From: a virus | Direction: 5' to 3' (one strand) | Virus record (IMG/VR): IMGVR_UViG_3300017917_002838 | Span: 1 to 64,000 of that record | Length of the DNA: 64,000 nt | In this document: positions 1 to 39,027 of the stretch, one piece after another | How positions within the stretch are numbered: position 1 is the first letter of the stretch | Layout of the letters: the number at the start of each line of letters is the position of its first letter | The notes under the pieces: model-generated | What the model was told of the DNA's origin: nothing | The model's input: only the letters and a program-made list of their open reading frames with translations | The model's database searches: none | Program-made: the position numbers and the translations under genes

Positions 1-1
1 A

Positions 2-277: not shown

Positions 278-288
278 TTATTATCTCC

Positions 289-1064: not shown

Positions 1065-1116
1065 AAAATAAAGTACTCCTATGCTTATTTTAGCATAGGA
1101 GCACTCTTAACGCTGT

Positions 1117-1353
1117 TTAAGCTTTGCGACCAAAAGCTGTATCTTTTGGATTTAATGCTCTCATAATTACTGGCAATGTTGCGGCAATTCCTGCATTGAG
1201 CATTGCCTTCCAGTCCTGATTTCCGGACATATAAACTGCAATAGCTGCTGCTAGAAAAGATCTTCCATAGCTAGCTAGTGCTGCTAGAAGCTGTTCCTTC
1301 ATATCTACTTTTCCATCCTTATTGAGGTCTTTATTCAATATAATCATCTCCAA
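1117..1353 (-). CDS. Putative holin
   Basis: Small, two hydrophobic segments, SYGRSF..LNPKD.AFG tail; start uncertain. Confidence 0.55.
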   Translation of the reverse strand: MEMIILNKDLNKDGKVDMKEQLLAALASYGRSFLAAAIAVYMSGNQDWKAMLNAGIAATLPVIMRALNPKDTAFGRKA

Positions 1354-1423
1354 CTGAGCCCTATGCTCAGGAATTAGGGAATTACCCCAAATTTATTTTA
1401 TCATTTATTTATAAATATAACAA

Positions 1424-2329: not shown

Positions 2330-2333
2330 AAAA

Positions 2334-3431: not shown

Positions 3432-4222
3432 TTAAATGTTTTTATCCTTGACATATCGGATAATTCAAATTTAAACTCAACGATGTCCCAAAGTTTTTCT
3501 TTGTTTTGTTTTATTAAAAAATGTATTTCTGCAAGCTCTTCTTCTGTCAGTTGTTGAAATGGTTTATATCCGCCTAATCCAACCAACTGCTCTCTTCTTG
3601 TTCCTTTATCGGTAAAATGAAAAGGATTATATGAATAATCTATTACTTTATCTAGAGGATTTTGATCAAAATATTTATTTAAATATTTTTCTGTAATAAA
3701 TTTTGGAACATAATTTATTTCTTTATCTTTTTGTATCCATGGCAGAGTGGCCTCACAACATTTAATTACCTCTTCTTTACTTCCACCAAATATGCAAACA
3801 ATTGACCAGAAAGATTCCTCTCTTACTTTAAAGTAAGCTCCAGAATCTTCATTTTCTTCAAACCACTGAGAAATATGTCTAGCAGAAACTAGTTTGCCCT
3901 CTAATGTATCATTATCAAATTTCATATTTATATTGGTATCTGCATCAAACCAATAGAAGTTATCGAACTCTAAATTTTTTAATTCTAAAACTGAATAAAT
4001 TCTTGAAATATCTGCCTCATGCCAATCTTTACTTTCAGTATAATGAAATACTGTTTTATATTTAGACTGATCTAAATACTCTGATGGATCTTTTTCTGAA
4101 TAAAAATGAAATTCAATATCCCAGTCTCCAATATATAGGTGAGTAAATCTATTTATAAATCTAACACCCAATAGAAAGTAAGAGTTTGTAGCAGTTACTG
4201 AAATTATAGTTTTCTTTTTCAT
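3428..4222 (-). CDS. Glycosyltransferase, GT6-like
   Basis: AT.SY, DAD, FGG and E.YLNKYF resemble GT6 motifs. Confidence 0.6.
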   Translation of the reverse strand: MKKKTIISVTATNSYFLLGVRFINRFTHLYIGDWDIEFHFYSEKDPSEYLDQSKYKTVFHYTESKDWHEADISRIYSVLELKNLEFDNFYWFDADTNINMKFDNDTLEGKLVSARHISQWFEENEDSGAYFKVREESFWSIVCIFGGSKEEVIKCCEATLPWIQKDKEINYVPKFITEKYLNKYFDQNPLDKVIDYSYNPFHFTDKGTRREQLVGLGGYKPFQQLTEEELAEIHFLIKQNKEKLWDIVEFKFELSDMSRIKTFK

Positions 4223-4228
4223 TTTATC

Positions 4229-6163: not shown

Positions 6164-6260
6164 AATATAAAACCTTTCTTGACCGAGTTTTTGTGTCGGC
6201 CTCCGCTAAAATTGTTGTAATCTTAAGTATAGTATTTTTTCTTTTTAAAAATACTATTTT

Positions 6261-7250
6261 TTAAAATTTTTCTTCAAGATGCTGTAAAGCATTCTTAGTC
6301 AACTGTAACCAGTTATAGTCTTTATGAACCTGTTCTGATTGAGAATAGTAGTAACCAGAATAAGCTTTAAAGTTCATTACTGAATCATACATTACTTCTT
6401 TCAATGCGTCAACATCTGGCTTAAAAACTTTTCCTGGATGTTCAAAAGGCCACGGGGAATCTATCAACCTAGACTTTACACTTAAAGGTCCTATAAAGTC
6501 TTTATAATGTGCCCAAGTTGAAGTAGATATTGTTGGCATTCCAGTTGCTAAAGCTTGTAGGGGTATAAATCCAAATCCTTCACCATAACTTGGATATATT
6601 AAAATATCATGCATATGATATAAAGTTATTAACTCATTTATTGCTAATTCGTCTTTTATAATTGTTATATTGTTATAAAGTTCATTTGGAAGACCTATAA
6701 TACTTCCATGATCATTATATATTCTAGTTGTATTTTCTTTATGACATTTAAGAGTTAAATGAAATTGTTCTTTATGTCCAAATAATTCAGTAAATGCATC
6801 TACTACCATTTGACCAGATTTTCTAGTAGCCGGTTCTCCTACATGTAAAAACTTAATTACTCCATCATTTCTTTGACCTCTTTTAACTGATTTCCATATT
6901 GGTTCTATTCCATGAGGATAAACATGTATTGGTGGCTTTACTTTATTTTCTTTATATACATTAGCAACCCAATCTGATGTTGTCCAAACTTCATCACATA
7001 AATTAAATTTTTCTTTCCAGCCTTTTCTAAGTTCGGTTGATTCCCAAGGAGTATATCCTATTTGATATTGATTACGATGTAATTTATATCCGTCTGGTTG
7101 TGTAAAATTTATTTGAAAATCTGCTTTAGGATCTGCATATCTTACATTATGTCCTAATTCATTTAAAGATTTTACTATATGTTGTCCTGCATATCCATAT
7201 CCAACTGCTGGGTTTAAATTAGCTTTTATAGAGTAGTAAGATATGTACAT
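6261..7250 (-). CDS. GT4-type (GT-B) glycosyltransferase
   Basis: PHG, RK, PS.GEGFG..PLQALATG.P. Confidence 0.85.
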   Translation of the reverse strand: MYISYYSIKANLNPAVGYGYAGQHIVKSLNELGHNVRYADPKADFQINFTQPDGYKLHRNQYQIGYTPWESTELRKGWKEKFNLCDEVWTTSDWVANVYKENKVKPPIHVYPHGIEPIWKSVKRGQRNDGVIKFLHVGEPATRKSGQMVVDAFTELFGHKEQFHLTLKCHKENTTRIYNDHGSIIGLPNELYNNITIIKDELAINELITLYHMHDILIYPSYGEGFGFIPLQALATGMPTISTSTWAHYKDFIGPLSVKSRLIDSPWPFEHPGKVFKPDVDALKEVMYDSVMNFKAYSGYYYSQSEQVHKDYNWLQLTKNALQHLEEKF

Positions 7251-7337
7251 TTGTCCTTTTTTCTAGTCAACCGGCTTGACAGAATTGTTTAAATTCTGTT
7301 AAGATTGTATTTACTGTCTCTAAAGGAGGTAATACCA

Positions 7338-7916
7338 ATGGAGAAAAGTTTGAAGCGTTTGTTGTTTGTTATTACACATTCTAGCATAACATTTTCGTTT
7401 TTGCTAGTTTCAGTAATGATAACATCAGCTGGCGCTAAAAGGGCTGAAGCACTTGTTGTTAAGCCTGTAGCAATTCAAACAGTTGCTGCATATAAAGCAG
7501 AAAGAATAAAATTTCTTGAAGGCGCTAAGAATCTAACAGATCTAGAACTTCTTGAAGTTTTGACCCTAGCAGGTTTCGAAGGAAAAAAACTTCGTGTTGC
7601 TTGGGCTGTCGCTAAAGCAGAGTCTAATGGTAGACCAAGAGCCCATAATGGGAACAGAAAGACGGGGGACAACTCGTATGGCATATTTCAAGTAAATATG
7701 CTTGGGAATCTAGGTAAAATAAGAAGAGACAAGTTCGACCTAGCAAAAGATTCCAGCTTGTTTAATCCAATCAAAAATGCTAAAATAGCATATTATATGA
7801 CCGACAAGGGATCAGACTGGTCCGCTTGGTCAGCTTATGGAAATAAGAGATACAAGTATTTCTACAAAAAGTTTCCAAAAGTTTGTTTAAAAGTTAGTGG
7901 AGATTGGACAGTCTAA
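7338..7916 (+). CDS. Lytic transglycosylase (SLT-like) with N-terminal signal/anchor
   Basis: AES, SYGIFQVN, W.AW; AAAGGAGG RBS before ATG 7338. Confidence 0.8.
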   Translation: MEKSLKRLLFVITHSSITFSFLLVSVMITSAGAKRAEALVVKPVAIQTVAAYKAERIKFLEGAKNLTDLELLEVLTLAGFEGKKLRVAWAVAKAESNGRPRAHNGNRKTGDNSYGIFQVNMLGNLGKIRRDKFDLAKDSSLFNPIKNAKIAYYMTDKGSDWSAWSAYGNKRYKYFYKKFPKVCLKVSGDWTV

Positions 7917-8134
7917 TTAAAGTTCAAGTTCTAAACGCTTATAAAAAGTTAGCGGAGGAAAATATTGTTCCTCCGCTGCTTTGTCCTTCGGACCAAACTG
8001 ATTTATATCCAAATATAGACGAATCTGACAAGGTGTTTCTTTATTGTTTTTCTTGTACCTATAAAAATTATCTAGGCTTAGAAGCCTATTCTAAAATAGA
8101 AAAAGCTGTTATACAAAATAAAAATATTATATAA
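7904..8134 (+). CDS. Hypothetical Zn-binding protein
   Basis: CPxD...CxxC. Confidence 0.5.
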   Translation: MDSLIKVQVLNAYKKLAEENIVPPLLCPSDQTDLYPNIDESDKVFLYCFSCTYKNYLGLEAYSKIEKAVIQNKNII

Positions 8135-8200
8135 TTGGATTGATGGCACTTAAACAATTTGCCTATATATCTAAGGGGCATCCCCTTAAGAAAAGACGAC

Positions 8201-8434
8201 ATGACCGATTCCTCAACAACGCCAAATTCGGACGGGGTTCAAGAAGAAACTCTGGAAAACAACCTACCTCTAGTAACATACATAATGCTGCATAGAATTT
8301 ATGACCTTTTAGTTGTTATCGGAAAAAATTTAGTCAAGGATGACTCTTTAGACCGATTAATCTCTTATCATGAAAATGGATATTTATTGGGTCCGTCCCC
8401 TAGTTATTCTGAGGATCCTGATGCCAAAAAATAA
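8201..8434 (+). CDS. Hypothetical protein
   Basis: ORF in plus-strand operon; start inferred. Confidence 0.55.
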   Translation: MTDSSTTPNSDGVQEETLENNLPLVTYIMLHRIYDLLVVIGKNLVKDDSLDRLISYHENGYLLGPSPSYSEDPDAKK

Positions 8435-8540
8435 TGGTAAATGCGACCAAGAGGGAACTAGTACTATTGATGATTCAATTGACATGGTTTTAGACTCCGT
8501 TACTTCTTGACTTCAAAATTTACAATTGCTATAATAGTTT

Positions 8541-8611
8541 TAATATAAAGTCGAGCTATGCTCCTTTATGTTATCTAAAACCCCAGAGGAATCCGCCTCC
8601 TCTGGGGTTTT
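8541..8611 (+). ncRNA. Candidate two-hairpin small RNA
   Basis: TTGACT-N17-TATAAT (8507-8535), no ORF, ends in 14-bp hairpin with U tail. Confidence 0.55.
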
Positions 8612-8644
8612 CATATGGATCAATTTTAGAGTATAATAATATAT

Positions 8645-8920
8645 ATGATTAGACACCAAATAAAAGCTTTATCTACAACTATTCCTACAGAGTTAACCAT
8701 AGAAGATAATATAAATTCTGTATGTACTTTAGTGGTTCAAAATATAGACTCTACAAATTATATCTATATTGGAAACAGTTCTGTATCTTCTTCTGACTAT
8801 GGTTTTATGATTTATCCAAATCAAGCTTTTACGATTGAATTAAGACCAAATGATAGAATTTATGGTGTTGGTTCTGCAATAATTAATGCAGTTTGCATGT
8901 CTATAGAAAGATCAACATGA
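8645..8920 (+). CDS. Hypothetical (possible virion) protein
   Basis: VQN...IYIG..VS...YG beta-rich pattern. Confidence 0.55.
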   Translation: MIRHQIKALSTTIPTELTIEDNINSVCTLVVQNIDSTNYIYIGNSSVSSSDYGFMIYPNQAFTIELRPNDRIYGVGSAIINAVCMSIERST

Positions 8921-9552
8921 TTCAAAGTACAGTAGGTTTTACAAATCCACAGGTTACTGCGGCACCGCCTGCATACACAAGCACTGTAAAGCATTTAGTT
9001 AAAAGCGATTATAACGGTACAATCAATAAAGGTCAGGCAGTTTATGTAACTGGCTCTACTGGATTATCTGGAACCAACATGCTGGTAAATAGAGCAAGCA
9101 ATACTATAGAAATGACCTCATCTAAAACTATGGGTCTTCTTGAAACCAGTCTAAATAAGAACGGTATAGGTTATGTAATTACAGAAGGATTGCTTGAAGG
9201 ACTAGATACATCTGCAGCGGGTTCAGCAGGAGATCCAGTATGGCTAGGAGTAGACGGAAACCTGATATATGGATTAACAAATAAACCTGTAGCTCCAGCA
9301 CATTTAGTATTTATAGGAATAGTTACACGTAAGCAGCAAAATAACGGTGAAATCTTCGTTAAGGTTCAAAACGGATTTGAAATAGAAGAACTTCACAATG
9401 TTGTATTAACAGGCAAAACTGCTGGAGATACAATTGTATGGAACGGCGGAAACTGGATTAATAGAAATATAAATGGTGCTACTGGATCTTTTACATCTGC
9501 TGATGGCAAAACAGTTACGGTTACAAACGGAATTATAACCAATATTATCTGA
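8917..9552 (+). CDS. Virion/tail-fibre-like protein
   Basis: KGQAVY..G, GEIFVKVQNGFEIEELHNV, DGKTVTVTNGII motifs. Confidence 0.55.
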   Translation: MIQSTVGFTNPQVTAAPPAYTSTVKHLVKSDYNGTINKGQAVYVTGSTGLSGTNMLVNRASNTIEMTSSKTMGLLETSLNKNGIGYVITEGLLEGLDTSAAGSAGDPVWLGVDGNLIYGLTNKPVAPAHLVFIGIVTRKQQNNGEIFVKVQNGFEIEELHNVVLTGKTAGDTIVWNGGNWINRNINGATGSFTSADGKTVTVTNGIITNII

Positions 9553-9624
9553 GCCCCCCAACAGAATCGAACTGTCAACCTACGCATTACAAGTGCGTTG
9601 CTCTACCTATTGAGCTAAGAGGGC
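9552..9624 (-). tRNA. tRNA-Thr(TGT)
   Basis: Cloverleaf, anticodon loop TTGTAAT context, GTTCGA T-loop; no encoded CCA; overlaps last 10 nt of GT25 gene. Confidence 0.9.
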
Positions 9625-10319
9625 GGGTTTAATTTCCACCATAAAAGTGTAATATTTCTAGAATAATGATCTAGTCCATGCAATGAATTTGGAATAGATG
9701 AATCAAACTGTGTGGTTGGAACAAATAATTGATAAGTATAAGCTTTATCAGTCCAATAAATAAAATCATCAAAAACAGATGGAATATAATATTTTCCATC
9801 AATATAATGTCTGTCTAAAAATTCTTTTGCATATTTTCTTGACATTACATAACATACTACAGACCAATCAAAATGATGTCTTTTTCTTAAATGAAATTCT
9901 GCTGGATAAAATTTTTCATGGCATACATAGAGTTGCATTATGTCAAAATCTTTAGGAAATTCGTTATAAAAATCGTTCCACGTTTTACCATTCCAAAGCG
10001 GAACAGTATCTAGACTAAAATCATCTTCTATAAAAATTCCATATTCTTTATCACTAGTTTCATACCATAGTTTTATAGCATTTATATGAGAAATAGAAGA
10101 TGAGTTGCTTACATTGGGAAATTTTCTTGGAGCTTGTAAATCATTTCCAGGTTTATCTATAAGCATGTCTGAAACATCAATTTGTCTACCATCAACTGCC
10201 GGAACTATAGTAAAATCAACACCGTACTTATTTAACTCATTAGAAATATATTCTCTACGATCAGAATGTCTTTCTAGGTTAATAACGTATACTGGGCCAA
10301 AGCCCTCTAATGGATTCAT
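9615..10319 (-). CDS. GT25-family glycosyltransferase
   Basis: YVINL...RR, AVDG, SH, EDD. Confidence 0.82.
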   Translation of the reverse strand: MNPLEGFGPVYVINLERHSDRREYISNELNKYGVDFTIVPAVDGRQIDVSDMLIDKPGNDLQAPRKFPNVSNSSSISHINAIKLWYETSDKEYGIFIEDDFSLDTVPLWNGKTWNDFYNEFPKDFDIMQLYVCHEKFYPAEFHLRKRHHFDWSVVCYVMSRKYAKEFLDRHYIDGKYYIPSVFDDFIYWTDKAYTYQLFVPTTQFDSSIPNSLHGLDHYSRNITLLWWKLNPPS

Positions 10320-10356
10320 AGATTGTTATTGTACTATAAAATGTTAGATTTGAAAA

Positions 10357-11106
10357 TTAAGACCAGTAAGTTACGCTACAATACCCAGAACCACCATTTG
10401 CTCCACCGTTGGAGCCTAAGTTCCAGCCACCACCAGAACCTCCACCACCTGTATTGGCTGTAACGTTTACAAAATTTCCTTGACCTGAACCACTGCTTCC
10501 TGGCATATAAGAACCACCACCGCCGCCACCAAAACCATTTACTCCAACACCAGATATGTTTGCTGCCGTTGAACTGGAGTATGTAATTCCTCCTCCGCCA
10601 CCAGAACTTCCAGTTCCACCAAGAATGCTTAAGGAAACAGAAGTTCCATTAGTTAAAGATATTGCAGATCCACCAGCACCGCCTCCGCCACCAGGTCTTT
10701 CAAAAGAAGTGGAAGCACCTCCTCCACCACCTGAGCCTCCATTACCTCCAGCCTGACTGGTACCGCCTCCAAATCCACCACCTTCTGCTATCAATAATGA
10801 ACCAAAAGAGGAATTGGAACCTTTTGAACCATTTGTATTTGTTCCGCCGCCAGAACCTCCTCCACCAATAGTTACAGTATAAGAAGCACCAGGGGTAACA
10901 GGTAGTGTTCTTTGTAAAACTGCACCTCCTCCTCCACCACCACCACTAAAATTTGTTTGCGCTCCACCACCGCCGCCACCTCCGGCTACAAGAAACACAT
11001 CGACAGTGGTGCAGTTAGATGGAACAGTAAATGTTCCGGTAGATGTAAACTCAGATACTTTCTGACTTAACCCACTAGATGGTAAAGGGAATACATTTAT
11101 CCCCAT
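10357..11106 (-). CDS. Glycine-rich virion (fibre/decoration) protein
   Basis: FTSTGTFTVP..VAGGGGGG...GGSG.C.V.YW. Confidence 0.65.
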   Translation of the reverse strand: MGINVFPLPSSGLSQKVSEFTSTGTFTVPSNCTTVDVFLVAGGGGGGGAQTNFSGGGGGGGAVLQRTLPVTPGASYTVTIGGGGSGGGTNTNGSKGSNSSFGSLLIAEGGGFGGGTSQAGGNGGSGGGGGASTSFERPGGGGGAGGSAISLTNGTSVSLSILGGTGSSGGGGGITYSSSTAANISGVGVNGFGGGGGGSYMPGSSGSGQGNFVNVTANTGGGGSGGGWNLGSNGGANGGSGYCSVTYWS

Positions 11107-13300: not shown

Positions 13301-13690
13301 TTAAAAGCTTCTGTCTTCTATTACAAATCCATTTTCTCGATCAAATAATACCCATTCAATATCTACGATATCAAAGGTAGATCTAAGTGATTCCATTACC
13401 TTATTTAGGTCTAAATATCCACAAGTATATAGATCAAATTGAAGCAAAGCAGGTTCTGGCTCATCCCAGATATGAAAAGCTATATGGCTTGTTTCGATCA
13501 TCACTATTGCTGTTAACCCGCGATTTCCTGGAACTTCTACATATGATGCAAATGGTCCTTGTATAATCTTCATATTAATCTGGTCGACTAGATTTTTTAA
13601 GAATTCTATTCCACCTTCTTGTGTAGCAAGTGGATTATTTACTTTGGCATTTACCAATAAATGCTTATGATATATTGTAGCTGTTGTCAT
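13301..13690 (-). CDS. speD: S-adenosylmethionine decarboxylase proenzyme-like
   Basis: H..V, G.TA...IETSHI.FH.W, D.YTCG. Confidence 0.78.
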   Translation of the reverse strand: MTTATIYHKHLLVNAKVNNPLATQEGGIEFLKNLVDQINMKIIQGPFASYVEVPGNRGLTAIVMIETSHIAFHIWDEPEPALLQFDLYTCGYLDLNKVMESLRSTFDIVDIEWVLFDRENGFVIEDRSF

Positions 13691-13750: not shown

Positions 13751-14005
13751 TCGATCTATATTCTAGTCGACTATAATATTCATTTTTAGAAAATGTTAAT
13801 ATATTTTTTATTTGTATGATACCATCCCTGTAAAGCGTGTCCGAATTGGGTAGTGCGCCCATATTGCCCTTTTATTTTGTGAGCCATATCACAAAAAAAG
13901 ATTTCAATTTATACCATATGCCCGAATTTCAGACTTGCGCTTGTCGGGGGTCTATGGTTCACTTAATACATGAACAAGGGACAAGGACTAGAGAAAGGAA
14001 AGAAT

Positions 14006-14369
14006 ATGAAAATCGAAATCCTAAAACCTAAATGCCAAACCTGCGGGTATATCCCAATGGAATCTTGGGATAGAATCTGCCCAAGAGATAAATCGGTAAT
14101 GCGTACCGAATTAGTAGAATTGGAGATGAACTAATGAACACAATTCAATGGATAGGCGCATATTGTGAGGAAGGTTGCCCTGATGAGGCTACCGCTTGCC
14201 TTCTATGCGTAGAAGGTAACGACATCAACGGATACTACGATGAGGAGATGAACTAATGAGCAATATCAAGCGCTACTTAGAAGAAATAGAAGGCGAATCT
14301 TTTAATGAGGCTATGGAGGCCTTGTTAGCCTTCTATCGTCAAGAGCAACTAGAGAAAGAGGGAAAATAA
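14006..14369 (+). CDS. Three coupled mini-ORFs (14006-14134 Zn-ribbon-like; 14134-14256 Cys/acidic; 14256-14369)
   Basis: RBSs and TAATG overlaps, read manually. Confidence 0.6.
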
Positions 14370-14582
14370 ATGAGCGCAACAATTCTTAGTAAATCTAATT
14401 TACTACTAGGCAAGACCTACGAATCAAAGAGAGGGTCAGGTGTTATCGCGGAGGTAACGAATAGCAGACACTATTCACCGCAAGGAACCTCTTATGTAGT
14501 AAGAGTAGAGCAACAAGACGGCGGGGTATTCTTTGCGACAGTAGTAATAGCCGACAATGACGAACTATGGGAGGAGATGTAA
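14370..14582 (+). CDS. Hypothetical small beta-barrel-like protein, paralog of 15535-15744
   Basis: LL.GK.Y...RGSG.I.E...Y.VRV...F.ATV shared. Confidence 0.65.
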   Translation: MSATILSKSNLLLGKTYESKRGSGVIAEVTNSRHYSPQGTSYVVRVEQQDGGVFFATVVIADNDELWEEM

Positions 14583-14584
14583 AT

Positions 14585-14770
14585 ATGTATTCTTTCGATA
14601 ACAATTCACTACTAGATAAGTACGCAACAATTCAGGAGGACGTGTTCGATATGTATAACTATGTAGAAGATGTAGAAGATGAAGAATCAGCGTTAGATTT
14701 TTTCAATGATTCAGACATTGAGGAAGAACAGTTAGACTGGGATGATGTAACTGATTCGATGTTCTTCTAA
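14585..14770 (+). CDS. Highly acidic mini-protein
   Basis: D/E- and aromatic-rich; GGAG RBS. Confidence 0.6.
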   Translation: MYSFDNNSLLDKYATIQEDVFDMYNYVEDVEDEESALDFFNDSDIEEEQLDWDDVTDSMFF

Positions 14771-14811
14771 TAACTAAATAAATAACTAACTACTAACGAA
14801 AGGTAATAACA

Positions 14812-14982
14812 ATGAACAATGGATTCTTAGATATAACGCTAGATAACTGGGGAGTATCTTTCTCTACCGCCCCGTACTACTTTTCCGTATCGTGGGGAGG
14901 CGTAGCGCTTGCCGTAGCCGTAGCCGTAGGCTGGAGGGTGTATCGCCACTTTAGACCCACTAAGCCCTTCTCTTTACTCTAA
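14812..14982 (+). CDS. Small membrane protein (56 aa)
   Basis: GAAAGG RBS; hydrophobic VALAVAVAVGW followed by basic tail. Confidence 0.55.
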   Translation: MNNGFLDITLDNWGVSFSTAPYYFSVSWGGVALAVAVAVGWRVYRHFRPTKPFSLL

Positions 14983-15169
14983 GAGATAACCCATAACCTG
15001 CCACCCGAAAGGGTGGCAAGGCTAAGGGCTAAGGGCTGGGGGGCTCGGTGGATCGCTTACGGGAAATGGTACGATACTCACGGGCAGCTAGCGCCCCCCT
15101 GTAGGTGCGGACTAAATTATTGATTTATGAAGAAGTAAATAAGATCCCTGGCCCGCAGAATAGGGGGCG

Positions 15170-15223
15170 TTTTCCACAGGCTTACGCACAGGTGTGGATA
15201 ACCCTCGAGAAATCTGTGGATAA
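15170..15223. promoter_or_regulatory. DnaA-box cluster
   Basis: TTTTCCACA 15170, TTACGCACA 15182, TGTGGATAA 15193 and 15215. Confidence 0.75.
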
Positions 15224-15534
15224 GCTACGGCGTGTCGCCCACACCGCAAATGTCCGATTTCTCCCAATCCTGCTTACGGGAGTGTCGTAGATCCACTTTG
15301 AAATAGGTGTAAATTTACAGGTTTTTTATTGGGTTTTTTAACACTTAAATTATTGCTATTTTTTACCTATCAAAAAAGCCCAATATTTTCGTGTAACGCA
15401 TTCGGGCGTGTCGAAGGCATGTGAGGCGTATCACAAATTATTTTTCAAGATGCCCGAATTATACGCATTTCTAATTTGATTTTGTCGGTGCGTTCGTGTA
15501 TCTTTGGTATTAGTCAATTAGAAAGAAGGTTCAA

Positions 15535-15744
15535 ATGTCCGCTCTCACATTTTCTCACAAAGGTTTGCTCGTTGGCAAATTCTACCAAGGTTCTCGCGGG
15601 TCTGGAATTATCCAGGAAGCCCAAGATTCAGAGGCTTGGTATGGCAGAGGAATTTCTGCCTATAAAGTTCGCGTTCGTCCTGATTACAAGGGTGATGGAA
15701 TTTATCTCGAAGATTTCTGGGCAACAGTTGCCGTAGAATGTTAG
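15535..15744 (+). CDS. Hypothetical protein, paralog of 14370-14582
   Basis: GAAGG RBS, own promoter. Confidence 0.65.
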   Translation: MSALTFSHKGLLVGKFYQGSRGSGIIQEAQDSEAWYGRGISAYKVRVRPDYKGDGIYLEDFWATVAVEC

Positions 15745-15866
15745 GGGATAACTAACCGAAACGGGGGCAGTTTCGAGAGTGTTCTCGCCCAACGTCGTAA
15801 GTAATAACTCTCACCATTTTTGTCAGCGCCAGATGATACAATTCAGAAATAAACGAAAGGGAAAAA

Positions 15867-16671
15867 ATGAGCCAGATGAAATTATCGTTAGAAAATTTTG
15901 ACGAAATGCTAAACGAAGTTTATGGAGAAATAAATGTTGCGGGCAGTATTTTCACCGCTTCAGATATTCTTAAAAATTGCGATTCTATTGCTTATAGTGT
16001 TTATGCCGCAGATTATTTAAGTTTTGATGAAGAAGAAGGGGAATAAAATGAAAAAATATAAAGTAACCTATGAAACTTTTGTAGAGGCTGAAGATAATCT
16101 TCGTGCCATGTTCAAGGCTAATCATAAATTAGACCCGCTTGGAGATGTTCAGTTTCAGTTTGATGTTGTAGATGTTGAAGAGGTATAAAATGGCAGAGAT
16201 GGAATTTTTTCGTATGGATAGCGAGGGAGCGGGCTGGCTACCGCTCTCTCAAATGAGTAAAGATGAATTTGATGAATTAGAAAAATCAGTTGCGTTTGAG
16301 TTAGAATTTTCCAAATACTTTAGATAAGGGAGAAATAAAAATGGGTAATTTATTAGATGTTATCGGTATCGAATGTATTACATGCGGAACTGCCGGATTT
16401 GTTTTCTATGGTGATGAAGGTATAACAGTTATGCCTTGCGAGTGTGAGGAATAAAAAATGTACACGTTTATAGTTGTATCACTTTCAGTTATTGCTACTC
16501 TAATTGGAGTAGCATTAGCAATTGTATTTTTTGATTTGGAAGAAAATGAAAATTCATAAAAGCATAGTTACAAAGGTTCAAGAGTTGCGTAGAAGTAATG
16601 CAGCTACACCGATCCCGTCTAAAAAAATTTATTCACGAAAGAAAAAACATAGGTTAAAAAAAGAGGAATAA
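15867..16671 (+). CDS. Six mini-ORFs (15867-16046, 16048-16188, 16190-16327, 16341-16454, 16458-16559 membrane, 16546-16671 basic)
   Basis: Tightly packed with purine-rich RBSs, read manually. Confidence 0.6.
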
Positions 16672-16816
16672 ATTCGTGTAACGTAGTCGGGCGTGTCGCG
16701 GCCCCCGCGGGCTTAAAGACTTTGTTACGGAGATCACATTAATTTCACGGGTCTAGGAGTTGCCAATGTCAGTGGCCTGTGTTATCGTTCTCTTACCTGC
16801 TACGAAAGGACTCCAA

Positions 16817-16957
16817 ATGGACGATTTATCTGCTGACCTCTATGGCGACTGGTTCGAGGCTGAGGAATACTCAACCGACGAAGAATATGAGGAGTGGGTC
16901 GATACCGACCTATTCTATGACAATGAACCACCGGCTGATGATATGTGGGGCTTTTAG
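16817..16957 (+). CDS. Highly acidic mini-protein (46 aa)
   Basis: GAAAGGA RBS, own promoter. Confidence 0.65.
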   Translation: MDDLSADLYGDWFEAEEYSTDEEYEEWVDTDLFYDNEPPADDMWGF

Positions 16958-17078
16958 CCCCACTAGGGCCCCGGCGGGCCCCAGTGTGTTGTTACGACAC
17001 GAAAATATTTTAGCCATAAACTTGCGAATGTCGGTTGTTTCTGCTATGGTTCTACCACCAACTACGAAAGGGCCAAAA

Positions 17079-17222
17079 ATGGAAATTTACAACGGCGGCG
17101 AACTCATCGATTTCTCCAACGAGGAGTATTTTGAGGGCATCATCTTTGCTGATGAATGCGATGCGGAGGAGGCTTATTTTGAGTCTCTATGGCTCGAGGA
17201 CCAAGAACAGGAGTGGATATAA
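17079..17222 (+). CDS. Highly acidic mini-protein (47 aa)
   Basis: GAAAGGG RBS, own promoter. Confidence 0.65.
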   Translation: MEIYNGGELIDFSNEEYFEGIIFADECDAEEAYFESLWLEDQEQEWI

Positions 17223-17343
17223 GCCCCTCTGGGGCCCCCGTGGGCTTTTTAATCTTGTTACGGGCATGTGATAATTATCACCGATCTGCAGCTATATTTT
17301 GTCGGTGGCCTCATGTATAATCTAGACTAAGAAAAGGGGAACC

Positions 17344-18060
17344 ATGAAACTAAAACGCTCTAACGATAGGAAGGTAACCAATGCCGTCTCCAAGAATGGA
17401 AAAACACCCGCTATTGCTAATACTTTTGGGCTACCTGCTGGGAAGGATTTCTCATGTCCTGGCGCTACTAGCATCTGCGAAAGTGTCTGCTATGCAGGAA
17501 AACTCGAAAAACTCTACAAGGGAGTAAAAGCCGTACTACTGCATAACTGGGAATTGTTACGCAATGCAGATATGGATACCATGCTACTTTTGATTGATGA
17601 GATGATTGTTGACTTTATTGCAGATTGTGAAAAGAAAAATGCGCCTAAACTCTTCCGTATACACTGGGACGGTGATTTCTTTAATGAAACATATACACAC
17701 GCATGGAGACTAGTAATCATGAACCATCCAGACGTAAAATTCTGGGTCTATACTCGCGTAAAATCTTCTGCCGAGATTCTTCAAGGCTTAGAGAATTTAT
17801 CAGTTTACTATTCTACCGATTCTGAGAATAAAGAAACCGCTCAAGAATTATCTGGTAAAGGCGTAAAACTTGCATACCTTGCAACTACTTTTGCAATGGC
17901 TAAAGAAGATATGCTAAATCTAATTGGAAAATCAGGCGTTAAGTGTCCTGAGAATAATAAAAAGATACCGCTTATTTCTGTAAATGGTTCTGCATGCGTT
18001 ACATGTGGGCAATGCGTATATGAAAGAAACGATATTCTTTTCTCCGCTACTAAAAAATAA
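17344..18060 (+). CDS. GP88-like (radical-SAM-related) protein
   Basis: CPGA..C...CYA, RIH..GDF, YT, C-terminal C..C..C. Confidence 0.7.
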   Translation: MKLKRSNDRKVTNAVSKNGKTPAIANTFGLPAGKDFSCPGATSICESVCYAGKLEKLYKGVKAVLLHNWELLRNADMDTMLLLIDEMIVDFIADCEKKNAPKLFRIHWDGDFFNETYTHAWRLVIMNHPDVKFWVYTRVKSSAEILQGLENLSVYYSTDSENKETAQELSGKGVKLAYLATTFAMAKEDMLNLIGKSGVKCPENNKKIPLISVNGSACVTCGQCVYERNDILFSATKK

Positions 18061-18249
18061 AATAACAAAAACAGTTTTCAATTTCAGTTTTTGATCTTGA
18101 AAATATTTTCAATTTGAAAATTGGGCCCCCATGGGCATTTTGTACCTTTTAAGGCGTGAGATTTATCACACCCGGAAACTGCATCTTGGATTATGCCATG
18201 TCAGTATTAGATGATATAATTTTCGCACAAACAACAAGAAGGGGAAACA

Positions 18250-18543
18250 ATGAAACAACCAACACTACAAGAACTACTAGACGCATGCTCCGATTCTATC
18301 GTTGCTGATGAAATTACAAACGAGGCAAAGACTCTAATCGCAACTCTTCAAGGTTCAGATAATCGTAATCAAATTATCTCAGAATTATTCGAGTATTCTT
18401 CTAGCCTTGCTTCTATGGTACTTACAAATGTACTTCATGTGTTATACACGCACGAACAAGTACAAGAACTAATCAAAGCGCAAGAACAGGCTATGGCCGA
18501 TGAACTAACAAATGAAATATCACAATTCTTAGGGGGTAAATAA
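18250..18543 (+). CDS. Hypothetical protein
   Basis: RBS and own promoter. Confidence 0.65.
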   Translation: MKQPTLQELLDACSDSIVADEITNEAKTLIATLQGSDNRNQIISELFEYSSSLASMVLTNVLHVLYTHEQVQELIKAQEQAMADELTNEISQFLGGK

Positions 18544-18544
18544 T

Positions 18545-18859
18545 ATGGGAAGAAATTTTGCAGAGGCATTATCAAACGTTGAAGGATTAGATATTGAGGA
18601 TGCAATTGCTATGCATCTTCAGTCTAATCACTATCCACCAATTCCAGTTGAAATGGTGACACCATGCATCCAGGCTATTGCTTGCTATAACAATGAATTT
18701 GATATGGATTTGCCTATTGCTCTACCCGAAATTGACGGATTCCAGGTAACTTACAAAGGCAGAACAACTGCACCTGCATGGTCAATTATTGAACAGCATC
18801 ATCTGCATCCATGGCTATATGATTACTATAATGATTATCCAGAAGAGGATGAGGACTAA
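18545..18859 (+). CDS. Hypothetical protein
   Basis: HL.SNHYPP.P, HHL..W. Confidence 0.65.
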   Translation: MGRNFAEALSNVEGLDIEDAIAMHLQSNHYPPIPVEMVTPCIQAIACYNNEFDMDLPIALPEIDGFQVTYKGRTTAPAWSIIEQHHLHPWLYDYYNDYPEEDED

Positions 18860-19079
18860 TGGCAATTTGCGTATCATGTGACGAACAAGGCACTCACGAA
18901 ATTATTGCCAATTCTTTTTATCTTTCAGGAACTTGGTATTGTTGTGCGTGTCTTGGACAATGTAATTGTGAGGATGAAAGCTGATGAAATGTTGGAGTTG
19001 TGATCAAATAATTGATCAAGAAATGGAGGGCTATCACCTGGTTGATGGCTCTCCAACTTGTTGTGAGTGTGAGGACTAA
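18859..19079 (+). CDS. Two Cys-rich mini-ORFs (18859-18984, 18984-19079)
   Basis: CxxC pairs, coupled starts and stops. Confidence 0.55.
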
Positions 19080-19173
19080 GGCCCCCGTGGGCCTAAAAGA
19101 TCTCTTACGACACGATTTGATTAATGTCGGTGCCTTGGTATATAATTCTACTAACTTAAAAGAAAGGGAAAAA

Positions 19174-19425
19174 ATGCTAGATACAACTAACTGGGCAAGA
19201 TACGAGTTTACTATTGGAGGTCTTACTTTTGTTTCGCTTGTAAATCAAGCAGGTACAATTTATCCAAAAGTTTCTATGCTTCCAAGACCAGTTCTTGATG
19301 ACATTAATCGACAAGCAATTCTAAGTTTAGTTGGTAATGTTGAATTTATGACTAGAACAGAAATCCAAGAAAAACTTGCTGAGGCAAACGAGTTCGCAAG
19401 CCAAGCGTTGCTTGAACTGGTCTAA
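19174..19425 (+). CDS. Hypothetical protein
   Basis: GAAAGGG RBS. Confidence 0.65.
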   Translation: MLDTTNWARYEFTIGGLTFVSLVNQAGTIYPKVSMLPRPVLDDINRQAILSLVGNVEFMTRTEIQEKLAEANEFASQALLELV

Positions 19426-19580
19426 TTAATAATAGATAGCGGGTACTTCCCCACCCGCTATCGCCCCCGTGGGCCCAACAACACGCTTACGATCATGTGA
19501 AATTTATCACAGCTTTTGAGCTTGATCTATGTCGGTGGCCTATGCTAGAATATGCTCACAACAAAATAAGGAGGCTAAAA

Positions 19581-19769
19581 ATGGATACACTATCCGTAAA
19601 GACACGACTATATCAGATAGGTGATTTATTTACCACTCTAAAGTCTGGTACTACTGGTGTAATCAAGGAAATCCATAGAACGGGGTCTGGCTCGGCTCGC
19701 GTATTGCTAGATGTTGGCGGTAAAGACCGCTGGACTAGCGTATCGGCTGAAGATTTAGACCTTCGCTAG
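19581..19769 (+). CDS. Hypothetical SH3/KOW-like protein
   Basis: IGD......TGVIKEI pattern; AGGAGG RBS. Confidence 0.6.
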   Translation: MDTLSVKTRLYQIGDLFTTLKSGTTGVIKEIHRTGSGSARVLLDVGGKDRWTSVSAEDLDLR

Positions 19770-19842
19770 TCAATTTGACGACACCTGAGTAAGTGTGATA
19801 AACTGCTCACCAACAAAAACAACAACTATCGAAAGGGAAAAA

Positions 19843-20265
19843 ATGAGTAGAGGCAAAGCGATAAATGTTAAAATCGCTACAAGCAAAGTAATCAAGGCGC
19901 TAGAAACTAAACTAGCGCAAATCAAGAAAACCTATGCTGAGCAAGATGCTCTAGAGGCTAAATACCAAAAGTCTTTAGAAAAGTGGAACAAAGAATTGTT
20001 AGAGTTCGCACTTGCTAATATCAAGAAGGCTAAGAATCTTCGTGTGAATATGCGTAGTTGGGATAAATCGTTAAATGTTGATTTTGATATTCCAACACTT
20101 GATGGAGAGTATCCAAAACAACCACAGCGAGAGTTCGAGCAACTACACACTCACTCATATAACGAGATGGTAGAAGAAATTGAGAACGCAATTCGTATTC
20201 TCAAAATGACCGACGAGGAAGTTGTAAGCACAAGCACATACAACGCAATCGCTCGTTATCTCTAA
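19843..20265 (+). CDS. Hypothetical protein
   Basis: GAAAGGG RBS. Confidence 0.7.
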   Translation: MSRGKAINVKIATSKVIKALETKLAQIKKTYAEQDALEAKYQKSLEKWNKELLEFALANIKKAKNLRVNMRSWDKSLNVDFDIPTLDGEYPKQPQREFEQLHTHSYNEMVEEIENAIRILKMTDEEVVSTSTYNAIARYL

Positions 20266-20393
20266 GTTTCCTATACGCCCCTTTCTGGGGCACACGGGAA
20301 TGAACCTTCCTGAGCAAGAAGCAAAAAGGCTCCCTCACCTAGGCACGTGAAGGCTAAACTGCCTACCATATCCCTACTAGAGAAAGTCAATTA

Positions 20394-20609
20394 ATGACAC
20401 GATTTAAAGTTGAAATCTGGGACGAGATCCCGCAAAATGATATCACCGTTTGGTTAGAAGAGGGCACTGATGCTCGTGGACTGTCTGAAATAGTCTGGTC
20501 CAATTTGAATAAGTTCCAAGGCAATGTAACTGGAGTACTAGTTGACACACTGCATAATAAAAGAAAGTTTGCATGCTACTATCCCATGGAGATTGTCTCA
20601 TCCAGGTAA
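20394..20609 (+). CDS. Hypothetical protein
   Basis: ORF with RBS. Confidence 0.6.
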   Translation: MTRFKVEIWDEIPQNDITVWLEEGTDARGLSEIVWSNLNKFQGNVTGVLVDTLHNKRKFACYYPMEIVSSR

Positions 20610-20746
20610 GAATGCAGCTCCGTACCCCTTTCGGAGCTGCGCCCCCTAGGGCGATATGTCCGTTTTACGATAGCTAAAAAGATCACCAGGCTTGCGAATG
20701 TCAGTCTTATCTGGTATTATTCTCGAATCAACTAAGAAAGGAAAAA

Positions 20747-21754
20747 ATGGCTCACAATCTCGAAACCGAAAATGGCGAAGTTGCTTTTGCTTTGCGGGGC
20801 GCTCCTGCTTGGCACAATCTTGCTAATCGTATTTTCTCAAAAGATGAGGAAGTATCAACTCAACTAATGCTAACAGAGGCTAAACTTTCTAATTGGAATG
20901 TTCGCCTCTCTCCAGTAACCGACCACATTCCTGCTGAATGGAATGATGTATCAGGTTCGCAATATGTTATTCGTACTAATCCATTTAATCAAGGAACTGA
21001 TGTTTTATCTGTTGTCGGTTCTCGATATCAAGTAATTCAGAATGAGGAATTATTTTCATTCGCTGATAATATCCTAGACGGTGATTCTCGTTGTGCTTGG
21101 GAATCTGCTGGCTCCTTAAAGTCAGGCAAGGTTGTATTCGGTTCTCTTACTGTTCCTCGTGAAATGGTATTAGACCCACAAGGCGCTAATGATAAGACTC
21201 AGTTATATCTTATCGTTTGGACATCTCATGACGGTTCTGTTGCTGTTCAAGCAGCGATTACACCAGTTCGTGTAGTTTGCCAAAACACCCTTAATCTTGC
21301 TATGAAGTCTGCTAAGCAGTCATTCAAGATTCGTCACACTCAATCTGCTGATGGAAAGATTCAAGTAGCACGAGAAACTCTTGGATTAACATTTCAATAC
21401 TTTGATGAATTTGAGAAAGAGGCTCAATCTCTATTTTCTCAAAGCATTACTGATGTAGAGTTCTCAAAACTTATTCAGACTATTTATCCAAAGCCTGATA
21501 AAGATACAAAGAATGCTATCACCCGCTGGGAAAATAAGGTTGTTATGCTTGATGACCTTTATCACAATTCCCCGACTAATGCTAATATCAAGGGAACAAA
21601 GTGGGGTGCGTTCAATGCGTTAACCGAGCGTTTGGATTATTACCGAAATGGTAAAGGTTCTAATTCAGATTCTCGTTATGCTTCCGCTTCAGGTTTCGAC
21701 CCTGTTATTACCGCTGAAAAGAATAAGATTCTTCAGGCTGTAAAAGCGTTCTAA
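20747..21754 (+). CDS. DUF932-family phage/plasmid protein
   Basis: PAWH.L, Y..IQN, ESAGSL, SHDGS, TPVRVVC.NTL, GT.WGAFNA.TE. Confidence 0.85.
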   Translation: MAHNLETENGEVAFALRGAPAWHNLANRIFSKDEEVSTQLMLTEAKLSNWNVRLSPVTDHIPAEWNDVSGSQYVIRTNPFNQGTDVLSVVGSRYQVIQNEELFSFADNILDGDSRCAWESAGSLKSGKVVFGSLTVPREMVLDPQGANDKTQLYLIVWTSHDGSVAVQAAITPVRVVCQNTLNLAMKSAKQSFKIRHTQSADGKIQVARETLGLTFQYFDEFEKEAQSLFSQSITDVEFSKLIQTIYPKPDKDTKNAITRWENKVVMLDDLYHNSPTNANIKGTKWGAFNALTERLDYYRNGKGSNSDSRYASASGFDPVITAEKNKILQAVKAF

Positions 21755-21793
21755 TCGCAACACCTGAGCAAGTGTCTAAACTGCTCACCAATT

Positions 21794-21867
21794 GGTTCGT
21801 TAGCTTAGTTGGATAAAGCGCTACCCTGTCACGGTAGAGATCACGGGTTCAAGTCCCGTACGAATCG
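21794..21867 (+). tRNA. tRNA-Asp(GTC)
   Basis: GGTTCGT/ACGAATC acceptor, CTGTCAC loop, GTTCAA; no CCA. Confidence 0.9.
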
Positions 21868-21978
21868 CCCCCTAGGGCCACAAAAATGTGTTACGAATCA
21901 CAAAATATTCCCCCCAAAAAGTAGACAAGTGTCAGTCCGGTAGTGTACAATTCTCCGCATACCAACGAAAGGAAAGAA

Positions 21979-22443
21979 ATGGAACAAACAACAAACAAGT
22001 TTGATAATGTTCAACCTTGGGAAGCAAAAGAGTTTCTTCAGCAACTAGATGAGAAACTAACTATCAAAGACGAAATTATCGTTGATTTAGATAAGCGTGT
22101 TTGGGAATTGAAAGAATCATTAGCAAAGGCTCAGGAAGATACTTCCAAGATTTTCAATAAATTTACTACATTGAAAGAATCTATCTTCTCTCTACTCGAT
22201 AATAATCGTGAGGGAGATGAAATTGAAATTACATTAGACGAGGCTAATGACTTTTTATATGCTAATGGTATTCAAACTATCAAGACTACCTACTCAGTTC
22301 ATTTTACAATTACTGGCGTTCTTGAAATCGAAGCAAGTAATGAAGATGAGGCCGAGCGTGAAGCCAGCGATGTTGATGTATCACATCATATGGGCGAAAT
22401 CACAGAGTTTGACGTTACCATAGATAGCGTGGAACAAGAGTAA
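21979..22443 (+). CDS. Acidic coiled-coil hypothetical protein
   Basis: GAAAGGA RBS. Confidence 0.65.
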   Translation: MEQTTNKFDNVQPWEAKEFLQQLDEKLTIKDEIIVDLDKRVWELKESLAKAQEDTSKIFNKFTTLKESIFSLLDNNREGDEIEITLDEANDFLYANGIQTIKTTYSVHFTITGVLEIEASNEDEAEREASDVDVSHHMGEITEFDVTIDSVEQE

Positions 22444-23034
22444 TGCTATATCAACTACAGGCACCTAACAAGTCCGCTTTCAATTTATCTGTGTTCGAGG
22501 CGGACTTGGCTGGACTAGACCCAGAATATGATACAAAAAACCTAACAATGGAAATTGGAACAGGTAAAGTAGAGAAGGTAAGAAACCTTATCATTAAATA
22601 CAAACTAATGGTATTATTTGAGAAGGAGTACGGATATAGTAATGAAGCATATATCCGAGCAGGCAAAGAAGGAAGAATCCTGAAAGGTGGAGTAAATCTA
22701 CAATGAACTATAAAGAAGGTTATATAGATGGATATAGGCAAGCACGGGAAGATATTGCCGAATCCTTAAGAAAACTTGTAGATGACCTAGATGAGCATTA
22801 TTCTGAACTAGTAGATGACCTAGCAGATAAATTGGAGGCTGGCAGTATATGAGCGAATGGATCGGTTGCGATAAATGTAGTGTTGCTGTTGCTCTTTATC
22901 AAGTTAAAGGAATCGAGGGTGAGTTATTTTTCTGCCACCACCACTTCCAGGAGAACGAAGAAAAATTAAGAACCTGGGCATTTGAAGTAATAGACCTAAA
23001 GGCTGAGGTTTTAGAAGAAGAACCTGTTGTTTGA
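22443..23034 (+). CDS. Three small hypothetical ORFs (22443-22706, 22703-22852, 22849-23034 with CDxC..FCxHH)
   Basis: Coupled ORFs. Confidence 0.6.
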
Positions 23035-23065
23035 CAATAAAATACTGGTCAACTATAATAAAAGA

Positions 23066-23173
23066 ACCAACCGTTAGGTGGAGCTATCAGCTTAATGCGA
23101 GCTAGTTCTTAAATATAGCATTCCCAGTATGCAGCCTAACAGTTACAGGCCCTCTTGATCAGAGGGCCTTTTT
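23066..23173 (+). ncRNA. Candidate structured small RNA
   Basis: TTGACA-N17-TATAAT (23031-23059), no ORF, intrinsic terminator 23147-23173. Confidence 0.6.
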
Positions 23174-23424
23174 AATGCCCACTCGGGCGAATAAATCTTC
23201 TTACGGCCCCCTTGGGCGATATTTCCGATTTATGACAATGTGTTTTAGATCACAGGATTTTGTGTAGACAAATGTCAGTGGTGCGTTATATAATTAGGGC
23301 ATGAACAAATTACCGACAAATTGGCGGAGAATGTCGGAAGCCGACAAAGATGCTTTTATATTGTCATATCATACTGGTAAAATGTTTTGTAATTGCACAA
23401 ACTGTATAAACGAAAGGGAAAATA

Positions 23425-24156
23425 ATGCCAAATTGGGTATTCAATACCTTGACAATTCAAGGTAATAAATCAGAAGTAGATTATATCAAAGATAAACTAA
23501 ATGAACCATTTACTCGTCAATACGATAATTGGAATATGGAAACACAAAAAATGGAAATTCAAGAAACTACCTATAGCAATCCTGTATTTTCATTTTGGAA
23601 TATCGTTCGTCCTACCGACCTCGAATCATATGTAAAACAACCTGAACATTCCACGGGTCAAACAATATCTGAAATCTTTTCAGGTAATGATTGGTATTCT
23701 TGGAATGTAAGAAATTGGGGAACCAAATGGGATGTTGCTGTTAGTGATAATAATAAATATACTGATACGGTATTAGTTGAGCATAAGTCAGAAGGTGAAG
23801 ACCAATGGCTTGTATATAAATTTGATACTGCTTGGTCCCCTCCTGTTTCTGCATTAGAAAGTTTATCTGAATTAGTTCCTAATTGTGTAGTAACTTTAGA
23901 TTGGCAGGAAGAGCAGGGATTTGGTGGACAAATAGAATTTATCCGAGGAGATGTAACTGCTGAATCTGATTATGAATCTAGATGTTATGACTGTGATGCA
24001 ATTGACACAATGGAGTATTGTGAAAATGACTGTGGTCAAATCTGTTCTAAATGTAATAATCTTGGCGAAGCCGACCTAGATTGTGTTGCAGAATGTCAGG
24101 ACCATAAGATATACTTGGAGACCAATGTACCCGATTATAGAAAGGCGGACCTATGA
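23425..24156 (+). CDS. DUF1281/YubB ferredoxin-like protein with Cys-rich tail
   Basis: MPNW, WY.W...NWGTKW, FDTAWSPP. Confidence 0.75.
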   Translation: MPNWVFNTLTIQGNKSEVDYIKDKLNEPFTRQYDNWNMETQKMEIQETTYSNPVFSFWNIVRPTDLESYVKQPEHSTGQTISEIFSGNDWYSWNVRNWGTKWDVAVSDNNKYTDTVLVEHKSEGEDQWLVYKFDTAWSPPVSALESLSELVPNCVVTLDWQEEQGFGGQIEFIRGDVTAESDYESRCYDCDAIDTMEYCENDCGQICSKCNNLGEADLDCVAECQDHKIYLETNVPDYRKADL

Positions 24157-25293
24157 GTTTCTTGGATGAAGAAAACCAGCAAGTTGTAGATTTAATTATT
24201 CAAGAAGTTGCTGAGGCATTATTTGAAGAATGGAATAATGCCAATTTAGATGAAGGCGATCTTTATGCAGATTATCAAATTCTAAATCATGCTGGAAGCA
24301 ATTACTTATATGGCAGATTCAATCAATACTACGATTTGAAACCAGGCGATGAATATTATATTGAATGGGACGAGGAGGCATAATGCTAGGATATACTGAA
24401 AAAGATCTAAACGATATGATTAATGGTGTCCTGGTCTCTTTGGACGCGACAAATCCGGAAGAGACTGATATAATTAGGCAACTAAATATGGCAAACGATT
24501 TCTTACAAGGCCTTTGGGCGGAAGGATATTTTGACTAATGGGAATGTATGACCAATCATGGTGTGTCTCGTGTGGAGCAGGAATGCTCTATACAGAGGAT
24601 GAAAATGTTACATGCTACAGATGTGACCAGGAAGAATATAACAAGCTCGAAACACGAGTATCTAGGTTTATGGAATATATTAAACTATATGTTATTAGTC
24701 TAGAGCAAGACGCAGATAGATTAGAAGAATTAAAACAAAACTTTCAAGGCGACTATGATTCAGAAGAATATGAGAATATAGTTCTTGATGACTACTATAA
24801 TACTGGAGAGCTTATTGCTTCCCGCCATTTATTGTCAGTAGCACAAAATATGATTGGTCAAAAGGAAAGGGAGGAAGTATGAGAGAGCTGAATATAAGTC
24901 CACGTCTACAAAAACTTATAGATAATGGAATCGATTCATTGGATATTATGCACGGTGAGCTTAAGAATCTAATGGTTGAAGCCGAGAAAGAATTAGAGGC
25001 AGCTATAGAGGAAGAAGAGCGTACCGAGGAGGCAATGGATTCCATGGAGCGCAAATATTGGGAGGGCCAGTTAGACGCTCTATCAATTGTTTATTCATTA
25101 ACATACAAACTATCATTTGCAAGAAAGGATTAATATGTACTTAACAAATGAATTCGTTCAACGTGAACTTGCCAGGGCACAACAGCTGCTTTGGGGAAGA
25201 TCTGAGACAGAGAATATCGAAGCTCATAATATCGTAGCTGCATTGCTTGTTGATCTAGAACGGGCGGGCAATAGGGCTTACGGGCTAAATTGA
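24153..25293 (+). CDS. Five mostly acidic hypothetical ORFs (24153-24383, 24383-24538, 24538-24882, 24879-25133, 25135-25293)
   Basis: Coupled ORFs with RBSs. Confidence 0.6.
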
Positions 25294-25361
25294 TGACTTA
25301 CGGTATATTGACAAAATTCACGGGCACGTTATATAATTAACCACCAATAGAAAGGAAAAAA

Positions 25362-38751: not shown

Positions 38752-39027
38752 ATTTTTGCGGTATCTCCCACAATCCTTGATCATTTACAGGAATGCTTTT
38801 TGCAATCCCCCAGTGATTATTTCTAAACATTCCATGAATATCAAAAAAGCCTAGAGGAGTTTTTCTCCATATTATTAGAGAATACCCGTCCCAAAATGCC
38901 TCTTGTTGATAAGTTTTAAAATTTTTTATAAACTTATCAACTTCATGTTCAGTTATATTTATAGACATTTGCTTATAACAAAAGCCTAGATAAGTATTAT
39001 ACTACTTTAACCTAGGCTTTGTCAACA

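Follow-up and report, generated by a model that had tools for sequence, protein, structure and literature searches.

Which promoters drive the sole large + strand gene block of an uncultured phage, and whose transcription machinery reads them? The question is raised by IMG/VR virus record IMGVR_UViG_3300017917_002838, of which positions 1 to 64,000 were analysed; this whole stretch of DNA is called the window. It covers the first 64 kb of a contig that is 104,555 bp long, has 35.8% G+C and overlaps by 99 bp at its ends; the genome has direct terminal repeats according to IMG/VR and is 100% complete according to CheckV. The block, at 13.9–27.3 kb, is surrounded by − strand genes. It carries a cassette array of 11 kb (13.9–25.3 kb, + strand) with about 40 small genes and 14 predicted promoters of the pattern TGTCRG-N10-TANNNT, in which a box at about −26 is followed by a −10 element (Table 1). 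These promoters are built exactly like the promoters on which actinobacteria use the activator PafBC, so the phage probably borrows this host switch. We put the probability that it uses host PafBC together with the SigA polymerase for the block at roughly 60%.

The pattern has 15 exact matches in the window, against an expectation of 0.94 (standard deviation 0.97, maximum 4; 100 shuffles). Thirteen perfect copies lie in the block at 15483–24854 and are joined there by an imperfect one at 13942; all 14 are on the + strand, and every one contains the invariant GTC within the TGTCRG box. The remaining matches, at 44383 (+) and 52958 (−), are intragenic and look like chance, and the other 40 kb of the genome hold no copy. 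The leader from the box promoter to a Shine–Dalgarno site of the GAAAGG type and an ATG measures 22–42 nt in 13 of the 14 cases and 130 nt at 23273. A preliminary description of the DNA had counted 11 perfect copies and one imperfect copy within 13942–23294, each on the + strand shortly before the start of an open reading frame (ORF). This count is right for that span, its perfect copies lying at 15483–23294, and the placement before ORFs holds for all 14 block copies; the total fell short, since two more perfect copies in the block (24094 and 24833) had been missed. PHROGs and Pfam assign no function to most of the block proteins, which are mostly ORFans. The block genes are probably early.

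The published in vivo motif of PafBC is tGTCgg(N10)tA(N3)T, with its 5′ part at −23 to −28, and its GTC triplet, contacted by two PafB arginines, is strictly conserved across actinobacteria (PMC8635444). PafBC promoters lack a −35 element, and PafBC is placed between SigA domain 4 and the DNA, an arrangement called 'sigma adaptation' (PMC8635444). The site is non-palindromic (PMC6789036), and the level of PafBC is constant, activation being brought about by single-stranded DNA (PMC8223512, PMC11804915). The phage promoters share with the PafBC-dependent promoters of Mycobacterium and other Actinobacteria (RecA-NDp, recA P1-type) the TGTCRG box at −28 to −23 with its invariant GTC, the distance of exactly 10 nt to a TAnnnT −10 element, the fact that the box is non-palindromic, the lack of a consensus −35 and, often, a G-rich tail after the box. 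The RecA-NDp/PafBC class proposed in the preliminary description is therefore borne out, as sequence, position and spacing all agree with the published motif (PMC8635444). There are also distinct differences. The phage promoters are phage-borne, stand 14 in a row and precede tiny ORFan genes, whereas the host promoters precede repair genes. All six positions of the phage box are near-invariant, while in the M. smegmatis consensus from chromatin immunoprecipitation only GTC exceeds 50%. Moreover, unlike in host promoters, the −10 element of the phage is near-perfect and often extended, a −35-like hexamer accompanies a minority of copies and a phased CRP-like box about half of them, and some sites form a TGTCAG-ACCC subclass. 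To our knowledge, PafBC-type promoters have so far been described only as the LexA-independent DNA-damage regulon of the host, and we found no report of them in phages in the literature.

The same promoter class is conserved in the relatives of the phage. Through the DUF932 protein of the block, 197 related IMG/VR contigs were found (78–87% identical), and 80 of their loci were analysed. These loci contain 1183 pattern sites on the gene strand and 3 on the opposite strand, where reversed-pattern controls give 3 and 8. In a leave-one-out comparison, any substitution within TGTCRG lowers the number of sites from 1183 to 45 or fewer, and any spacing other than 10 nt lowers it to 90 or fewer. The R position is A in 975 sites and G in 208. 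In five complete or near-complete relatives (107–120 kb), the sites are once more gathered in a single one-strand block of 10–13 kb. The 818 unique sites have the consensus AAA-TGTCAG-T-(G/C)-(G/C)-c-n-T-a-T-G-c-TAtAAT, with the G at −14 of an extended −10 in 74%. Most columns of their −35 region hold at most 0.1 bit, so the class has no −35 consensus. The tail following the box falls into subclasses, TGTCRG-TGG at 44% of the sites and TGTCAG-ACCC at 21%, and the latter is near-palindromic (TGTC-A-GAC). For the promoter of the DUF932 gene, an alignment of the orthologous regions shows that near the gene only the box, the −10 element and the ribosome site are invariant.

Superposed on this common design are additional elements at part of the promoters. 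A match of five of six letters to TTGACA stands 16–18 nt from the −10 in 20% of the relatives' sites, compared with 2% in a shifted control. In the window, the hybrids of this kind are the copies at 16767, 21930 and 23273. The −35-like hexamers TTGCCA, TTGCGA and TAGACA named in the preliminary description are present as it said, in a class whose hybrids are a minority and which is without a consensus −35. Regarding the CRP-like boxes, eight of the nine stand upstream of a TGTCRG element at a distance of 33/34, 43/44 or 63/64 nt, which phases them helically with it, and about half of the promoters have such a box.

Table 1. Predicted promoter elements and the WhiB-like gene in the window.
Feature	Position	Strand	Details
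−26/−10 promoter 1	13942–13963	+	imperfect −10, TGTCGG-N10-TTCACT; first after divergent intergenic region; genes from 14006
−26/−10 promoter 2	15483–15504	+	gene 15535–15744
−26/−10 promoter 3	15821–15842	+	without −35-like hexamer; genes from 15867
−26/−10 promoter 4	16767–16788	+	hybrid, TTGCCA 17 nt from −10; gene 16817–16957
−26/−10 promoter 5	17029–17050	+	TTGCGA at −35 position; gene 17079–17222
−26/−10 promoter 6	17300–17321	+	GP88-family gene 17344–18060
−26/−10 promoter 7	18199–18220	+	genes from 18250
−26/−10 promoter 8	19125–19146	+	gene 19174–19425
−26/−10 promoter 9	19530–19551	+	genes from 19581
−26/−10 promoter 10	20699–20720	+	DUF932 gene 20747–21754, tRNA-Asp 21793–21870; orthologous promoter kept in relatives
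−26/−10 promoter 11	21930–21951	+	hybrid, TAGACA 18 nt from −10; genes from 21979
−26/−10 promoter 12	23273–23294	+	hybrid, TAGACA; 130-nt leader; DUF1281_C gene 23425–24156
−26/−10 promoter 13	24094–24115	+	genes from 24153
−26/−10 promoter 14	24833–24854	+	genes from 24879
Nine CRP-like boxes (TGTGA-N6-TCACA, at most 1 mismatch)	13878–24007	+	full set of the window; all in block
Canonical promoter, TTGACA-17-TATAAT	23031–23059	+	untranslated RNA of ~110 nt, ending at terminator 23147–23169
Canonical promoter, TTGACA-18-TATAAT	25308–25337	+	right edge of block
WhiB-like protein	38443–38784	−	sole recognisable transcription factor of the phage; marker of actinobacterial host

A second class of promoters, canonical in both elements, is found in the block and at its right edge, and at both places (23031 and 25308) canonical promoters are kept in relatives. 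Since the two classes coexist, the host polymerase reads a normal −35 element, and the TGTCRG class is separate. Downstream of the promoter at 23031, within 23031–23176 (+), lies a putative small RNA of the phage, about 110 nt in length. It closes with a strong terminator, a 9-bp G+C hairpin and a T-run, and its fold has a z of −4.0; the RNA sequence has no blastn match at the corresponding place in relatives, and in Rfam only the tRNAs matched.

The Pol III alpha subunit and the large terminase of the phage are about 60% identical to those of Stanwilliamsviridae, the large Streptomyces phages BillNye, Samisti12, Gilson and Evy. WhiB, which the phage encodes, serves in the literature as a marker for actinobacterial phages (PMC10202952, PMC6802176). 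For the UDP-galactopyranose mutase, the nearest cellular look-alike cluster in the ESM Atlas comes from Actinomycetota, with support at the phylum level only. The WhiB protein, the Stanwilliamsviridae kinship and the mutase look-alike together indicate that the host is an actinobacterium, placed to the phylum only; on the first two grounds, the actinobacterial host assumed in the preliminary description is upheld. The WhiB gene was also tried as a route to host genomes and rejected, as the two loci matched in a genome contig scan are both spurious and non-actinobacterial. A megablast search of the block against cultured phages gave no match.

A host-side example comes from a metagenome scan for the promoter pattern combined with the RecA motif GKGS(V/I)M in A/T-rich codons. 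One contig matched; it has 46% G+C, and its genes run ftsK-pgsA-regulator-recA. Upstream of recA, the SOS-type box TCGAACGTATGTTCG comes first and TGTCAGTG-N8-TAGATT second, the latter some 35 nt ahead of the start codon. The encoded RecA scores 593 bits against PDB entries 1ubc and 1g18, which we take to be the M. smegmatis and M. tuberculosis proteins, and 482 bits against 2rec and others, presumably E. coli RecA. As this contig shows, recA is preceded by a promoter of this type in at least one actinobacterium of low G+C.

The block was also compared with the genomes of the cultured relatives. In the Streptomyces phages, the DUF932 homologue is gene 2–5, lies 1.2–2.6 kb from the genome end and occurs in two copies per record; it is thus inside their long terminal repeat, to which the block corresponds by position. 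The terminal repeat of Evy has the same layout as the block, with about 22 small genes and gaps of 100–180 nt. Its 16 intergenic promoters are canonical, however, with (C)TTGTN or TAGACA, about 17 nt and then TAGACT, and the PafBC-type pattern shows no enrichment in BillNye, Samisti12 or Gilson. TGTCGG strings in Evy were considered as boxes and rejected, because they are part of terminator-like hairpins far upstream of the canonical promoters. The intergenic regions of Evy (1–10500) contain tandem hairpins GGGCCC-TTCG-GGGCCC, then TGTCSGGCCCGGACA with a T-run and then the canonical TAGACT promoter. By this layout, the Evy terminal repeat follows the same cassette logic with different parts. 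As the Streptomyces relatives have the same module with canonical promoters, the −26 box is an innovation of the uncultured lineage inside an otherwise conserved, probably early, terminal-repeat module. Conservation of the PafBC motif is reported for the phylum that includes the hosts of these relatives (PMC8635444).

The mechanism that we propose starts from a cassette promoter composed of a −26 TGTCRG(TGG) element, a spacer of 10 nt and a −10 that is near consensus and in many cases extended (TGnTATAAT). Most likely the phage has no reader of its own, and host PafBC and the SigA polymerase would fire the block. Single-stranded DNA arising at entry, by nuclease attack or at the onset of replication would be the trigger. 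PafBC, a heterodimer with WYL domains, would insert between domain 4 of sigma-A and the DNA, which would let the housekeeping polymerase start without a −35, and the minority of promoters with a −35-like hexamer would provide basal, PafBC-independent expression. PafBC binding, the trigger and the timing are all points that we infer from the DNA sequence. As for a reader encoded by the phage, six-frame searches found no WYL domain in this genome and its five relatives, no PafC-type helix–turn–helix (HTH) domain in five genomes including this one, and nothing above the cut-off for sigma region 4. The preliminary description had seen no WYL protein in the window, and the same is true of the whole genome and of the five complete relatives. 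Pfam screens of 126 ORFs, 40 from the block and 86 others, yield no HTH regulator and no sigma factor, WhiB being the only recognisable regulator.

Several observations weigh against a dependence on host PafBC. First, the −35-like hexamer is found in 20–37% of the sites, and the −10 of the phage (TATAAT with TGn) is stronger than the TAGATT of the recA contig; much of the promoter activity could therefore be PafBC-independent. Second, the ACCC-tail subclass is outside the published 22-nt consensus (PMC8635444). Third, the Streptomyces relatives lack this promoter type, so it is not required for such phages. The organism behind the recA contig need not be the host of the phage. Finally, most phage proteins are ORFans, among which a new DNA-binding protein could hide. 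On a separate point, the timing, the conserved canonical promoters in the block mean that the genes behind TGTCRG need not be the first to be expressed. The preliminary description had proposed that the phage couples its first genes to the host damage sensor; with canonical promoters also conserved in the block, only part of this proposal is borne out.

Two other explanations deserve to be weighed. In one, which we regard as fairly unlikely, these are ordinary strong extended −10 promoters of SigA that need no activator, and TGTCRG serves another factor as operator or modulator, be it a repressor for the later shut-off of the block or some other WYL or HTH regulator of the host. The near-consensus TATAAT, the G at −14 in 74% of the unique sites and the share of −35-like hexamers would all suit such promoters. 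The near-palindromic form of the ACCC-tail subclass would suit an operator, and other host-type sites, the CRP-like and DnaA boxes, are also present in the block. However, the strict 10-nt distance and the non-palindromic main subclass fit an adaptor coupled to RNA polymerase better than a repressor. The box also has the sequence and the position of the PafBC box, and a low-G+C actinobacterium has the same box at recA beside its SOS box.

In the other explanation, quite unlikely in our view, a protein of unknown fold, phage-encoded or carried in the virion, recognises the −26 box and brings in or remodels the SigA polymerase in the manner of T4 MotA/AsiA. The likeness to the PafBC box would then be convergence or deliberate competition, and the block would be a 'middle' class induced by a product of the canonical promoters. 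The conserved canonical promoters in and beside the block are consistent with this, as is the dominance of block proteins without family matches, and the Streptomyces relatives, which do without the box, make it an innovation of the lineage. Nevertheless, the searches of the genome and its relatives turned up no domain of the HTH, sigma, WYL or PafC type, and the box is present even at the first promoter of the block. Such a new protein would also have to share with PafBC both the six bases that it reads and their distance from the −10. The two proteins encoded after the 25308 promoter were weighed as a candidate phage activator, but this idea was dropped, since the relatives keep the motif and not the proteins. 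Lastly, it is hardly credible that the motif is no promoter element but a repeat for packaging, replication or recombination that stands before genes by chance: the distance to the −10 is fixed, the copies share one strand, 13 of 14 have a leader of 22–42 nt, and across orthologous regions conservation is limited to the box, the −10 and the ribosome site.

Other features accompany the promoters. Small GCCC-N4-GGGC hairpins stand before most promoters between 16700 and 23200 (for example 17231–17248, 19463–19474, 20641–20652 and 23177–23188), often with TTACG about 12 nt after them. Some of these hairpins have a T-run, and they may act as weak terminators at the borders of the cassettes. The tRNA-Asp gene (21793–21870, +) follows the DUF932 gene and precedes the next promoter, and its co-transcription with the DUF932 cassette is therefore probable. 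Inside the block, a 500-nt non-coding gap (14983–15483) contains three DnaA-box-like sites at 15170–15223, two of which are perfect TTATCCACA on the − strand; in relatives, perfect DnaA boxes form an inverted pair upstream of the DUF932 promoter. An origin or a site that titrates DnaA could lie here. Outside the block, the − strand carries a sugar-modification cluster (1424–7250 and 9615–10319) with an NAD-dependent epimerase, the UDP-galactopyranose mutase and several glycosyltransferases (GT6-like, GT4 and GT25), and an S-adenosylmethionine decarboxylase is encoded at 13301–13690.

If the use of host PafBC is true, phages can plug into the single-stranded DNA sensor and the sigma adaptation of the host instead of supplying transcription factors themselves. 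It also suggests that a host alarm against DNA damage and phages can become an advantage of the phage. The block promoters, some of which have a −35, an extended −10 or a CRP box while others do not, would constitute a natural set of consensus-perfect PafBC promoters. A wider scenario is possible but remains tentative: an abundant uncultured actinophage lineage may have swapped the −35 of its terminal-repeat early promoters for the PafBC box, so that the single-stranded DNA alarm of the host ignites the takeover genes, with a host CRP-type input added.

The block can finally be set beside known systems. With the terminal repeats of Stanwilliamsviridae it shares the many short one-strand cassettes, each with its own promoter and hairpin, and it also resembles the early cassette arrays in the long terminal repeats of SPO1 and T5. 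The canonical SigA/HrdB early promoters, as in Evy, have a −35 hexamer 16–18 nt upstream of the −10, a feature that the TGTCRG promoters lack as a class. The middle promoters of T4, with a MotA box at −30 served by AsiA/MotA through 'sigma appropriation', are similar in that an activator box replaces the −35 while the housekeeping sigma factor is retained. T4 encodes both proteins, whereas here no phage reader was found and the box equals the site of a host activator. In the known cases in which a single-stranded DNA alarm is tied to phage infection, the host turns the alarm against phages; here, by contrast, the phage appears to use the alarm for its own genes.

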